From IMG/VR virus record IMGVR_UViG_3300021185_002806: 64,000 nt of DNA; one strand, 5' to 3'. Positions 53,927-63,757 of this stretch are shown piece by piece. The position numbers and the translations under genes were made by a program. The notes below the pieces were generated by a model, which worked only from the letters and a program-made list of their open reading frames with translations, was not told the DNA's origin and did no database searches. The stretch comes from a virus. Numbering within the stretch: position 1 is the first letter of the stretch; each line of letters starts with the position of its first letter.

Positions 53927-54464
53927 TTTTTATTATTACACCTATTATCCTATTCCCGTTTGTTTTTAGAGGGAGGTCGTATTTGAAACTACTCAAATAC
54001 TCAGAGATTTGGGAATTAAAGAACTCTAACACATCACTTGCCTTAGAATTTTCCCTGCCCCTCATTTGTACTGTCACTTTTACTTTATTGCCTTTATCAA
54101 TAAACTTTTGAACTTGGTTAAGTTTCATCTTTAGGTCGTTCTCACCTATAGCTGGTCTAAACTTAACTTCTTTAACTTCAACTGAATTTTGTCTGGCTAG
54201 TTTTGCCTTCTCTTTTTCACGTTTTTTGATTTCGTAATTGTACTTATTTATACTAATGATTTTTGCAACTGGCGGCTTTGCATCTGGAACAATTAGAATC
54301 AAATCTAATCCTTCTGAATCCGCTTTTTGCTGTGCTTCTTGTTTTGATAAGACACCAAGTTGTTCACCGGTGTCTGTGACTACACGTAATTCATCTGCAC
54401 GAATACGTTGATTGGCTACAACGAATGGCTTTCGCCCTCGTTCTTCCTTAAAGTTTTTCTTCAT
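53919..54464 (-). CDS. infC: translation initiation factor IF-3
   Basis: N..IRA.ELRV, LDLILI.P.AKPPVAKI, KEVKFRP.I, RGRE. Confidence 0.95.
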   Translation of the reverse strand: MKKNFKEERGRKPFVVANQRIRADELRVVTDTGEQLGVLSKQEAQQKADSEGLDLILIVPDAKPPVAKIISINKYNYEIKKREKEKAKLARQNSVEVKEVKFRPAIGENDLKMKLNQVQKFIDKGNKVKVTVQMRGRENSKASDVLEFFNSQISEYLSSFKYDLPLKTNGNRIIGVIIKND

Positions 54465-55722
54465 TCGTTCCTGTTGATTCCCCTATTTCTTCTGTAAATA
54501 CCAAAATCGGTTCTTTGTTATGTTTAATAAAATCACCTGTAATTTCTACTGATACAAGCCCTTGTTTAGCAAGTTTAGGCAACTTGAATTGTAATTTCAA
54601 TAGTGATTTTTCTAACACACTCCTAAGACCTCTTGCTCCTGTCTTATTTGATTTTGCTATTTCAGAAATCTCATTTATTGCATCTTTAGTTAAATTTAAC
54701 TCAACTCCATCTAATTTAAAAATCTTCTTAAATTGTGCCATTAGATTGTTTTTAGGCTCAGTCAATATACGACTTAGTTCATCTTTAGTTAAGTCGTTGA
54801 TACCTACTAGTATTGGAAAACGTCCCATGAACTCTGGTATAATACCGTATCGGATTACGTCTTCTGGTAATACTTCTTCTGATACTCTCATATCATCTGC
54901 CGAGTCTTGTGCCATAACTCTTGCGCCGAAGCCAATTGAACCATTGGCATTTAATCTTCGCTTGATTACTTTATCAAGACCAACAAAGGCGCCGCCGACA
55001 ATAAACAGGATTTTGCTTGTATCAACTTCAAGCATTTCTGCGCCAGGATGTTTTCTTCCACCACCCGGTGGAACACGTACAACCGTACCTTCAACAATTT
55101 TTAATAGGGCTTGTTGAACACCTTCACCACTAACATCTTTAGTGATAGAGATACTTTCACCCTTCTTTGCTTTTTTATCGATTTCATCAATATAGATAAT
55201 ACCTTGTTCTGCTTTTTTAATATCAAAGTCTGATGCCATAAGTAAACGTTGTATTACATTTTCAACATCTTCACCTACATACCCACTTTCTGTTAGGGTA
55301 GTTGCATCTACTTGTGCGAAAGGAACATCTAAAAATTTTGCGATAGTCTTACCTAAGAGAGTTTTACCTGTACCACTTGGTCCAAGCATCATTACGTTAG
55401 ATTTCTCTAACTCTACTTCATCATCATCTTCTGGTAAATTAATTCTTTTATAGTGGTTGTAAACAGCAACACTCAAAACTTCTTTAGCTTCATCCTGACC
55501 AATTACATGAGCATTTAAAAACTCATTGATATCCTCAGGAGTTGGAATATCGCTGTTTACTTCTGTTGTCTTGTTATCTACGCTCTTACGTTCATGGACG
55601 ATAGAATGACAAAGGTCAATACACTCGTTACAGATATACGTTGCCGGTCCTGCAATTAAGGTGTTGATTTCATTCTTATGCTTTCCACAAAATGAACAAT
55701 GATAATCTTTTTTATCGGACAA
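54448..55722 (-). CDS. clpX: ATP-dependent Clp protease ATPase subunit ClpX
   Basis: CSFC..CNEC zinc domain, GPSGTGKT, GYVG, DEIDK, GRKHP, IGF loop, TGARGLR. Confidence 0.97.
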   Translation of the reverse strand: MSDKKDYHCSFCGKHKNEINTLIAGPATYICNECIDLCHSIVHERKSVDNKTTEVNSDIPTPEDINEFLNAHVIGQDEAKEVLSVAVYNHYKRINLPEDDDEVELEKSNVMMLGPSGTGKTLLGKTIAKFLDVPFAQVDATTLTESGYVGEDVENVIQRLLMASDFDIKKAEQGIIYIDEIDKKAKKGESISITKDVSGEGVQQALLKIVEGTVVRVPPGGGRKHPGAEMLEVDTSKILFIVGGAFVGLDKVIKRRLNANGSIGFGARVMAQDSADDMRVSEEVLPEDVIRYGIIPEFMGRFPILVGINDLTKDELSRILTEPKNNLMAQFKKIFKLDGVELNLTKDAINEISEIAKSNKTGARGLRSVLEKSLLKLQFKLPKLAKQGLVSVEITGDFIKHNKEPILVFTEEIGESTGTNEEKL

Positions 55723-59068: not shown

Positions 59069-60000
59069 TTAGTGCAAACCGTTAGGAACGATTATATAGT
59101 GAATAGATAAAACTACACCAACACTTGCACCTAAGCCAATCATCATCTTTATGAAGTCTTTGGTCACAAGAGGGAAAACAGTTTTAAACTTTTCTTTACC
59201 AGTAATTGTTGCCATAGCAAGTTCACGACCACAATTGGTATATCATTCAGTTCCTTGAAGAACCAAAGAATTAGAAAATATACACAATCAATTATTGTAG
59301 CACTTCTTACATAACGTGTATTATGTTTTTCAATTACGATGTTTTGTATTTTACCACCACCAGTATAAAATATATAACCTAAGCCAAATACAAATACTGC
59401 ACTTACCATTACCATTAAATCAAATGGGATTTGTCTTGGTAAGAATACGGCAATGTTTGCCATATCATGTGATAACCAAGTGAACCATAAAAAGCCAGTT
59501 GTTATCCACTGACCTACTCGCCAATACATTTTATGATTTTCAGCGACTGGTTTTGCTTCGTCAAGTATTTTAGTAACACCAATCCAGATTACATATGCCG
59601 CCACAGCCGCAACTGCATAACCCATCATTGATTTGACTAGCATCTTCTCTAATATAAATGTACTAGCAAATGCACTTAACACTAAGAAACTTGTACTTAC
59701 TGGTACACCTATTCTTGTTAATATCAATAGTAAGCCTGGTGCGGCGGCATGATACCATTGAATCTCTTGAAATGGAATTTTGTTTAATCGTCCGTAACTA
59801 ATATCTCCACCATTAGTTGTCCAACCATACCACAAAGTATAAAGCAGTACCGCACTTGCGGCTCCCCACATTATCTTCCAATTAAATTTTTCGTTATTTG
59901 ATGCAATCCAAGTACCAAGAGTTTGTACTGAATCGTTTGCTATTACTGAATATGCGGCAAATAGAAAACCTATTGCCATCCATAGGGTGAGTGCATCCAT
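59069..60000 (-). pseudogene. PiT-like phosphate/anion permease with internal frameshifting deletion
   Basis: IANDS..LG / SHDMAN and GVPVSTS PiT-like signatures; likely true C-terminus CGRELAM...PNGLH lies in another frame (59233-59069). Confidence 0.75.
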
Positions 60001-60169
60001 TTTTTATCTCCTTCTGCTTAACGTCTTTACCACGTTGCTCACATAATTAGACCAGGCTCGATTGATGCCTGGTTGTAACCTTATTGTTACTTTCATATTT
60101 ATGAATGTAACACAAAAAAGATATTAAATCAATACACTTTTTAATTGAGTTGTTGATAAGTTGGGGAAA

Positions 60170-60235
60170 TAAAAAAGAGACAGTCAGCAATATAAAATGA
60201 AAGTGAGTAAAATATGGTTTGCCAACCGTCTCTTA
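60170..60235 (-). ncRNA. terminator-like hairpin with 28-nt anti-RBS loop (candidate sRNA)
   Basis: 14-bp stem gagacggttggcaa/ttgctgactgtctc with G-U pairs, followed by a U-tract. Confidence 0.55.
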
Positions 60236-60268
60236 ATTTTTGATTACTTGGTATTGTAATCAGAAAAT

Positions 60269-60485
60269 ATAAGCAAAGTAGGAGGGACTTGGTTACACCC
60301 CCAACCCCTCGACACAGATACCATTCTGAATCCAGGGAACCTAGTTCCGTTCGGTAGAACGATGTGACTCTTAGCCTCTCAGCTTTGAACCTGGGTACCA
60401 CCCCTAACTAGTCAAGTTCGACCGTCTGGTAACAGCCTCTTCCTTGCACTACAATCATTGAGTCGCTAAACTCTCTGATGCTTAT
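60269..60485 (-). ncRNA. unidentified highly structured ncRNA (217 nt)
   Basis: GC-rich island; terminal stem AUAAGCA/UGCUUAU; many helices; dedicated promoter at 60492-60520. Confidence 0.8.
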
Positions 60486-60491
60486 GTTATT

Positions 60492-60520
60492 AATATAGCA
60501 TAATGATTCGGTATTGTCAA
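60492..60520 (-). promoter_or_regulatory. sigma70-like promoter of the 217-nt RNA, with TGATTCG motif
   Basis: TTGACA(60515-20)-N17-TATATT(60492-97); TGATTCG at 60504-10. Confidence 0.88.
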
Positions 60521-61790: not shown

Positions 61791-62734
61791 AATACTAACT
61801 CCCAAAATCCATTATTATTTCTGAGTACTGTGCTACCGTTTACTTTTACTTCATTGCCTACCTTTTCATAACAACGAGGTGGCATATAAGTAGTAGGTTT
61901 AGCTAAGTTTACTGTTATAGCGGCTCCCTGTACTTCTCTATATTTAGCCCTTGTATTTTTAGGAGATAATGTTCTAGTGACTGAGCGTGGACTAAAATCA
62001 TCATTACCTGTATAGCCCAGTGATAATTTTCTCCCTGTAACATCAAATTTATGTAAATGCATTTCATCAACCATTGGATAAAATGATTTTATATAACCAT
62101 TTGAATAATCTGTTATGATTGCGTTTACTTTGCCTTCATATACATTTGCTAATTGCATTCTTGTGTTACCAGGATGTAATTGCCATCTGCCACGTACTGT
62201 TAAATGACTAAAACATTCTTGTTGCATTTGTTCTATATGGGCTTTCCATCTTGTTTTTGCAATGCCGGTATTAAATGTAGGTTCAAATTGAGTTATGGGT
62301 CTTGTAGGTTTCTGTTCCGCCACTATACCGGGCATATACCAATCAGGAAACCAAACTAAATTTAAAGGGTCATATATTTTTTGGCCATTTCTTAATTCTT
62401 CTAATATGTGATAAAACGCATTTGGTTTGGTTAACAAATCATCACGTGAATGTTCAGTGTTAAGCCAATCTTCATTGCTCCAAACTTTATTACTATTAGA
62501 AAATAATTCATCTATTACATGTACAATACTGCCATGTATATTACGGCGAATGCCATCATCATCAAATCCAAAAAGATTTATCCATATATCTTTTATTGTG
62601 CCTCGATATATCCAGGTCTTTTGCCCTGACTCTGCATCTGCACGTTTAGTTACAGTTAGATAATGTTCGTATGAAGTTAGGTGTCTGTGGGACCAATTAG
62701 GTGCTTCTTTCCAAAGACTTTCGTTATCAGTCAT
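61787..62734 (-). CDS. hypothetical protein
   Basis: Long coupled ORF with HPG.TR motif. Confidence 0.7.
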
Positions 62735-63065
62735 AATCGTCTAACAACTTTGTCTTATCTCCTGTATATCCCATTGCAGGGTTTAGTGAGTCTGCATCTG
62801 GAAGAGGGTCTTCTCTCTCTGTAATGACAGGCCATTGCTGTGACCATTTCTCATTTATATCATACAACCGTTGCGTGAACAATGGCGATGTATCTGGAAT
62901 GATTGCATCTGCTGGACACTCTGGTTCGCACACACCACAGTCAATGCATTCGTCTGGGTTAATTACTAACATATCTTCGCCAACGTAAAAACAATCTACT
63001 GGGCAAACTTCAACACAATCAGTATATTTACATTTAATACAATTCTCGTTTACTACGTATGCCAT
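62727..63065 (-). CDS. fdxA: 7Fe ferredoxin
   Basis: [18 protein letters not shown]...[12 protein letters not shown]. Confidence 0.95.
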
Positions 63066-63094
63066 ATATTTTCTTTATTAACCCCAAATTAAAA

Positions 63095-63355
63095 TATGAC
63101 TTTTCTGTTGCCAGGTAAGCCATCAACCCCTACGTGCTTAAAACTAAGCCGCTAATGCCATTTCTGGCTCATAATTTGCGTTTGCAATTATAGTTTTTGA
63201 CCAATAACGCAGTCATCCGGTAAACTCCACTTCACTTTCGCACCTGTCGATCCTAGTTCAGCCCCATCATAAAAACATTCAGTAAATGTGCTTATGGTGG
63301 AGCTGTGGGGTACTGCCCCCCAGTCCAGAATACGTCTACGTTGCTTCAACGTCTA
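63095..63355 (-). ncRNA. ssrA: circularly permuted (two-piece) tmRNA, alphaproteobacterial type; tag ANANYEPEMALAA
   Basis: Acceptor piece ...GGGGCAGUACCCCACAGCUCCACCA ends at 63295; 29-nt intervening segment; coding piece starts GGGGCUGAA...GAUCGAC at 63265; G3-U70 pair; tag ORF 63185-63144. Confidence 0.95.
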
Positions 63356-63400
63356 CAATATTATTTATACACGATAAACGTATATAAGTCAATACATTAA

Positions 63401-63757
63401 TTAAAATGTAATTGATGTTCCGATTACTGATTCAGTTCTTTCGAATGAATCGTTCAAATCATTTTTAAGATAAATTGTTACATTATCTTGTAGCGGGAAT
63501 GAAAAGTTTAACATTTGCTTGTTCAAATCTAAAAAATCTTTTCCATCAGCATCGATGTCCCATTTTGCACCGTAAGATGCAGTGATACCAAATAGTGGTT
63601 TTGCTACTGAAAACTCACCGTTTTGTGTATTTGCCTCAATCGCTCTTTCAAGTGATAGAGAAAACGTCATATCGTCTGATACAGACGTTCCTTCAGCCAT
63701 CGCTGATGTTGTAAATAAGGCCGCAACTAGCAGACCTGTTAGTGTTACTTTTTTCAT
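63401..63757 (-). CDS. exported beta-strand-rich protein ending in Phe (outer-membrane protein-like)
   Basis: Signal peptide, C-terminal SITF, promoter TTGACA-N17-TATAAT at 63809-37. Confidence 0.65.
   Translation of the reverse strand: MKKVTLTGLLVAALFTTSAMAEGTSVSDDMTFSLSLERAIEANTQNGEFSVAKPLFGITASYGAKWDIDADGKDFLDLNKQMLNFSFPLQDNVTIYLKNDLNDSFERTESVIGTSITF

Follow-up and report, generated by a model that had tools for sequence, protein, structure and literature searches.

ROOL and GOLLD are large structured non-coding RNAs, often linked to phages, which form closed RNA-only assemblies and whose biological role is unknown. They represent families different from the manA motif (RF01745) and are much longer than it, and manA is the closest described system for the RNA presented here. 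It was first reported as a riboswitch candidate located in the 5' UTRs of unrelated genes, with cyanophages and gamma-proteobacteria given as its sources (Weinberg et al. 2010, PMC2864571). A phage paper from 2023 still lists manA as an unverified cis-regulatory element and gives 100.6 bits for the copy of cyanophage S-CREM1 (PMC9964418). Since 2010 it has thus been carried as a riboswitch candidate without explanation; RNA-only cages formed by it in vitro were reported in 2026. A preprint by Ren et al. (2026) describes manA RNAs seen by cryo-EM as RNA-only decamers and as a 60-subunit icosahedral-like cage made from pentamers; these assemblies were obtained only in vitro, from concentrated RNA that had been refolded by heating (10.64898/2026.07.01.735769). 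It presents the assemblies as held by intermolecular kissing loops (L5-L7', L8-L9' or L3-L8') together with an L6-P6' GNRA-receptor contact, and its introduction mentions earlier RNA-only multimers obtained from long transcripts (10.64898/2026.07.01.735769).

The locus considered here lies in a 64,000-nucleotide stretch of viral DNA (IMG/VR record IMGVR_UViG_3300021185_002806), called the window below, in which the original prediction had marked an orphan structured RNA of 217 nt (60269..60485, minus strand). When the whole window was scanned with Rfam 15, manA RNA (RF01745) was the single match in this region, at 60470..60272 on the minus strand, covering model positions 1-192 of 192 with 55.5 bits, only 0.3 bits above the gathering score of 55.2, and E 1.8e-11. 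The RNA is therefore not an orphan. It is a genuine member of the manA family and not a new RNA class, and the vague likeness to manA which had been mentioned without confirmation proved right. The Rfam scan suggested at that time (manA, raiA, RNase P, 6S) gave a full-length hit to one known family and none to the others. With the threshold relaxed to E<=1, Rfam returned for the 551-nt region, apart from manA, just a mir-6 hit that is due to chance and falls on a hairpin downstream of the RNA, in keeping with the earlier statement that the RNA is not a tRNA, tmRNA, SRP or RNase P. A permissive Rfam scan of the whole window was negative for RNase P, 6S, raiA, SRP and other large RNAs, and at E<=0.1 there was neither a second manA copy nor a match to ROOL or GOLLD.

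Like the manA motif, the window RNA has a 5' hairpin, an enclosing stem, a P3 hairpin, a three-way inner junction, a long P8 and a P9, as well as the GUGGU loop, the ACC-containing loop and a marine phage origin. Its GUGGUA (60401-60396) aligns with the consensus GUGGUG of RF01745 and its CUACCG (around 60356-60353) with the consensus uaACCAg, and the marine occurrence of the family is repeated in IMG/VR contigs, in Pelagibacter phage Mosig and in marine MAG contigs. The 5' UTR position, to which manA owes its "cis-regulatory" label, was not found in the window, where a 270-nt gap with a terminator-like hairpin precedes the next ORF; this feature describes the context and not the RNA itself, so the manA membership stands. 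There are also clear differences. The window subfamily scores 55-74 bits for manA (its relatives 57-74 bits, the Mosig copy 64 bits) in comparison to 100.6 bits for S-CREM1 (PMC9964418), and it possesses an additional covarying outer stem, P0, which is outside the Rfam model. Loops L3 and L8 carry UACC and GGUA at sites where the Rfam consensus is variable or different. In contrast to the original manA, placed in 5' UTRs and known from cyanophages and gamma-proteobacteria, the subfamily has the promoter and terminator of a separate gene and its cultured anchor is a SAR11 phage.

Relatives were collected from IMG/VR by exact-pattern searching. More than 118 contigs matched one search, and two scans gave more than 130 loci, from which chance hits and duplicates were removed. 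Alignment A4 (MAFFT) comprises 78 distinct RNAs taken from the IMG/VR contigs listed and from Mosig, with the Rfam RF01745 structure plus the outer stem P0 mapped on it, and the survey of genomic context covers 83 non-redundant loci among the matches listed. The main search pattern lies in loop L5, hence the homologue set represents one subfamily and the conservation of L5 within it is inflated. When 12 kb of the window were compared with 50,697 phage records, the sole DNA-level match was the RNA itself, in Pelagibacter phage Mosig EXVC030M, which grows on Pelagibacter ubique HTCC1062 and in which the manA region, located at MT647606 108391..108164, is unannotated. Two further members of the subfamily used as queries again matched only Mosig among the phage records, and this SAR11 phage is the only cultured carrier of the subfamily; with its unannotated copy it offers a tractable test system. 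The same pattern gave 33 hits in 185,579 species genomes, of which four, all in marine MAG contigs, had flanking manA motifs; the remaining 29 had none and look like chance matches. With only four true copies in so many species genomes, the subfamily is essentially viral. Two contigs of 153 kb and 335 kb (L162 and L166), assigned to one Neomarinimicrobiota MAG from the Tara Red Sea samples, both carry this manA subfamily.

The region was described earlier as a GC-rich island in AT-rich surroundings, and the GC content is indeed 0.43-0.47 at 60200-60499 and about 0.28-0.33 in the flanks; all sequence features named at that time are present on the minus strand at the positions given for them. 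The minimum free energy of the RNA is unremarkable (z = -1.41), so thermodynamics alone would not carry a claim of a structured RNA, and the evidence against chance comes from the Rfam match and from covariation in the 78 homologues. In A4 standard pairs occupy 85.7% of the cells compared with 72.9% after shuffling, and both partners have changed at 53 of the 69 pairs. The covariation score amounts to 0.366 against 0.155 for shuffled alignments, none of 500 shuffles reaches 0.366, and in a control with the partners slid by 1-3 columns the score stays at or below 0.126. Helices P2, P3a, P3b, P4, P5, P6, P7 and P9 are 93-100% paired; the pair counts for P1 and P8 are underestimates, these variable helices being misaligned. 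RNAalifold run with no imposed structure finds P1-P9 again, 40 of its 51 pairs being compensated, and gives the register of P8a as C149-G181 to U152-G178 (RNA numbering). P5 is 100% paired and has swapped GC for AU in 20 sequences, the P6b stem covaries at all four of its pairs, and P7 is 99.5% paired with double changes at four of five pairs. It is thus well supported that the ten-helix manA fold has been kept by compensatory changes, and covariation among collected homologues, to which the original prediction had pointed as a check, strongly supports this fold.

Not all helices drawn from the single sequence survived this comparison. AUAAGCA/UGCUUAU, GUAG/CUAC, GAGU/ACUC, AGCU-GAGA-GGCU and CGUUC-UACC-GAACG are supported, and three others have to be abandoned. 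CCAGG/CCUGG is 71% paired with uncompensated changes and conflicts with covarying stems; GGAAC/GUUCC is 79% paired, also uncompensated, and the same bases covary in P4, which is 100% paired; GAGGG/CCCUC enclosing UUGG/CCAA is 58% paired and incompatible with P8a and P9, each of which is 100% paired. The complementarity of GGUACC/GGUAUC is conserved (96%) and shows no covariation. Outer stem P0, formed by AUAAGCA (60479..60485, minus) and UGCUUAU (60269..60275, minus) with 60485-60479 opposite 60275-60269, changes on both sides at six of its seven pairs; in loci with a promoter directly before the RNA its pairing reaches 84%, AU/UA swaps included, as compared to 24% in loci linked to a tmRNA.

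The opposite explanation, that no functional RNA exists here and that the region is a chance GC-rich spacer or a remnant of coding sequence, could refer to the low z-score and to an 86-aa GTG frame (60401..60141) which overlaps the region. It is opposed by the Rfam E value of 1.8e-11, by the many compensatory pair changes, by alignment gaps that are mostly single columns and would break a reading frame, and by the fact that over 12 kb nothing but the RNA matches Mosig at the DNA level. This explanation is so improbable that it can practically be put aside, and the claim of a real multi-junction non-coding RNA holds on the grounds of the Rfam match and the covariation in 78 homologues.

The second part of the original prediction, a dedicated promoter, has been well borne out. 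A near-consensus sigma70-type promoter is located at 60492..60520 on the minus strand, with the -35 element TTGACA (60520-60515), a 17-nt spacer and the extended -10 element TGC-TATATT (hexamer 60497-60492); its consensus score is 11 of 12 and the extended TG is present. The predicted start, A60485, is the +7 position after the -10 box and at the same time the first base of AUAAGCA, as had been noticed before, and the manA-class RNA of 217 nt would extend from this predicted +1 to the end of the outer stem (60485..60269). A promoter at the same distance is present in Mosig and, in all, in 64 of the 83 non-redundant loci among the matches listed, in the form TTGAC-N16-18-TAnAnT ending at a fixed position about 7 nt before the RNA. 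The spacer in the window contains GAATC at 60509-60505, a GANTC methylation-type site, within CCGAATCA; this sequence occupies the same spacer position in all five members of the window clade (window, L127, L129, L031, L077), and the other promoter-type loci are without it.

The window clade consists of the window, L127/L128, L129, L031 and L077, always with an FkbM-type methyltransferase upstream, and 3' of the RNA the order of elements is the same throughout: a small hairpin, then a 16-bp hairpin, then a U-run. In the window the small hairpin is found at 60241..60262 (minus; UGAUUAC, loop AAUACCAA, GUAAUCA), and in L129 and L031 its stem is replaced by different complementary sequences. The long hairpin, with 16 bp and a 28-nt loop, followed by UUUU (60174-60171), occupies 60171..60234 on the minus strand; its fold has z = -6.66 with none of 200 shuffles as stable, its loop motif ACCAUAU..ACUCACUUUCAUUU is invariant and its stem covaries in the window, L127, L129, L031 and L077. 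Owing to the size of its loop it escaped a simple terminator scan; the most plausible role of the element is that of a terminator, which may work in both directions. The 3' end placed at 60269 by the original prediction is therefore probably wrong, since the conserved hairpin pair and the U-run follow down to about 60171. Two other meanings of the 28-nt loop were considered and rejected: a small ORF on the opposite strand (MKVS...), where an indel among relatives shifts the frame, and an antisense seed, for which one near-match in the window (8064) is at chance level.

Across the wider set, a canonical terminator, made of a GC hairpin and a U-run, begins 13-21 nt after P9, directly behind P0, in 43 of the 64 loci with a promoter, and in several loci a fresh promoter comes after it. 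In 18 of the 83 loci among the matches listed the promoter is replaced by the 3' end of a permuted alpha-type tmRNA lying 10-12 nt upstream, and a promoter and an adjacent tmRNA were found together in none of the 83. Rfam confirms the tmRNA-manA adjacency in L005, L025, L035 and L036, and reveals a tmRNA-tRNA-manA array in L020. A ribosome-binding site and a start codon lie within about 25 nt in about 10 promoter-type loci, Mosig included, and in 9 tmRNA-linked loci; in Mosig the start codon, about 22 nt after P9, belongs to a rubrerythrin gene, and in such loci the manA RNA can also be the 5' leader of an mRNA.

An RNA that has a promoter, an end-closing stem and a terminator of its own, or that is co-transcribed with tmRNA or tRNA, is arranged like a stable RNA gene, and this arrangement argues against the cis-regulatory label. 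It is likely that the window codes for a manA-class RNA of a marine phage which is laid out as its own gene, transcribed by the host polymerase and active in trans. On this reading, which is drawn from gene arrangement, host RNA polymerase would transcribe the RNA early in infection; the product would be a discrete, end-protected and stable RNA of about 220 nt, or about 315 nt with the 3' hairpins, and it would act in trans instead of switching an adjacent gene.

A cis-regulatory leader or riboswitch has to be weighed here, one which senses a metabolite and controls a membrane-protein gene, the 278-aa ORF at 60000..59164, by means of the hairpin and U-run at 60234-60171. Such a role would agree with the first description of manA in 5' UTRs as a riboswitch candidate (PMC2864571), and in the window the next gene is in fact this ORF, on the same strand and 270 nt downstream of the RNA, with a terminator-like hairpin between them, so that control by read-through is possible; the about ten promoter-type loci, among them Mosig, with the RNA some 22 nt before a start codon also speak for it. 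What lies downstream, however, shows no shared theme: a rubrerythrin gene in Mosig, and elsewhere unrelated ORFs, a tRNA, genes on the other strand or nothing at all. Among the matches listed, the closest relatives are the most telling: the next ORFs after the RNA are on the opposite strand in L127 and L129, an opposite-strand tRNA-Asn comes next in L031 and L077, and the homologue of the 278-aa ORF is 1.2-1.9 kb further away in clade relatives, so in these the RNA cannot be the leader of the genes that follow. Moreover, the 43 loci with terminators have variable terminators, a short linker and an invariant outer stem, and no consistent alternative pairing was seen on reading them; several loci start a fresh promoter after the terminator, and 18 are fused to a tmRNA. 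A switch for the 278-aa gene is for these reasons considered improbable, and a stand-alone RNA, as proposed from the beginning, remains the most likely form, given the promoter and terminator layout and the opposite-strand genes next to it in relatives.

In the window itself a tmRNA is encoded at 63053-63409 on the minus strand (permuted two-piece alpha-type, 127.6 bits, tag ANANYEPEMALAA). The manA RNA and the tmRNA share a strand in both the window and Mosig, the tmRNA being upstream by 2.6-3 kb and, in the window, by 2.6 kb. A comparable arrangement is known from phage T4, the tRNA cluster of which includes species 1 and 2, stable RNAs of unknown function co-transcribed with tRNA-type genes; these are smaller than the window RNA and do not belong to the Rfam manA family. 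The tmRNA-(tRNA)-manA arrays resemble the T4 species 1/2 arrangement in gene placement. As for the ribozyme, decoy or translation-related role put forward by the original prediction, no specific support has been obtained for any of these.

The position next to tmRNA or tRNA, together with the 5' leader position in Mosig-type loci and an outer stem that begins exactly at the predicted +1, would also suit a module for transcript ends or processing, a stable 5' structure that protects or delimits the RNA which follows and has no trans function of its own. Nevertheless, in 43 loci nothing but a terminator follows, and ten covarying helices with near-invariant loops far exceed the needs of end protection. 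The in vitro assemblies point to a function of the fold itself (10.64898/2026.07.01.735769). A mere processing module is accordingly very unlikely, and the trans-acting RNA gene is preferred to it.

The loops of the fold are of special importance for this trans-acting RNA. Loop L3, (U)UACCAG at 60426..60431, is complementary to UGGUA of L8 as read from the sequence; loop L5, GUGGUA at 60396..60401, is closed by the 3-bp stem P5 (GGG/CCC); the GNRA tetraloop L6, GAGA at 60377..60380, caps P6b; loop L7, UACC at 60353..60356, stands on stem P7 (CGUUC/GAACG) and is complementary to GGUA of L5; and loop L8, AUGGUA at 60319..60324, stands on stem P8b (CAGA/UCUG), all on the minus strand. The numbers were assigned from the order of hairpins and are presumably equivalent to those of the preprint. 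The pairing between UACC loops and GGUA segments which had been foreseen thus corresponds to matching loops, L5 with L7 and L3 with L8. Complementarity is kept in 95% of alignment cells for L5 and L7 and in 86% for L3 and L8, and in L3 the bases A57, C58 and A60 are invariant in A4 and C59 nearly so (numbering of the first alignment row). No informative covariation between the kissing loops was found in A4, where the partner loops do not follow the single changes seen in L7 (UCCC) and L8 (GGCA); as the loops are nearly invariant, covariation cannot separate the combination L5-L7 and L3-L8 from L5-L3 and L7-L8. A possible compensated L5/L7 change is visible by eye in L123, which was not counted because MAFFT misaligns this sequence.

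In the preprint (10.64898/2026.07.01.735769), manA_pho34_A767 is joined by L5-L7' and L3-L8' kissing and by an L6 GNRA-receptor contact, and the window RNA has the complementary pairs L5/L7 and L3/L8 and a GNRA loop L6. By analogy, the conserved loops may form intermolecular kissing pairs, with UACC(A/G) of L3 and L7 facing UGGUA of L5 and L8, and L6 may add a further contact between subunits. That the window RNA assembles itself into closed, pentamer-based oligomers like the manA RNAs seen by cryo-EM, is a tentative proposal, the likeliest of the mechanisms and yet somewhat short of probable. P0 and the 3' hairpins of the window RNA are apparently absent from the constructs used for cryo-EM (10.64898/2026.07.01.735769). 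A more far-reaching idea would make manA RNAs trans-acting phage RNA particles, expressed from early promoters or together with tmRNA and tRNA in phages of SAR11 and other marine bacteria, which assemble in the infected cell into closed RNA-only shells that sequester or scaffold some component; their recurrent position beside a tmRNA would be a hint of a part in ribosome rescue or translation. This idea has to be called unlikely; if such trans-acting shells were real, they would be the first RNA cages found in nature to take part in infection. What the window RNA and its roughly 80 relatives contribute to the understanding of manA is one large subfamily in which the RNA is laid out as its own gene or as a part of a tmRNA/tRNA transcription unit.

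Some observations concern the surroundings of the RNA. The PHROG scan of the ten largest ORFs revealed no structural core genes in the window, and the 278-aa ORF and several other neighbours have no match in Pfam, PHROGs or NCBIfam. The same 278-aa ORF is 98-99% identical in L127 and L077, an unusually strong conservation compared with 70-84% for the neighbouring methyltransferase. A ClpX-type unfoldase (zinc finger and AAA domain; 54448-55722, minus) and a 4Fe-4S ferredoxin (62727-63065, minus) are encoded in the same gene block as the tmRNA. In some relatives other known RNAs accompany manA: a glnA RNA (glutamine riboswitch) is situated about 300 nt upstream of it (L004 1882-2861, L032 1257-1306), and in L004 a freshwater-2 RNA follows about 360 nt downstream.
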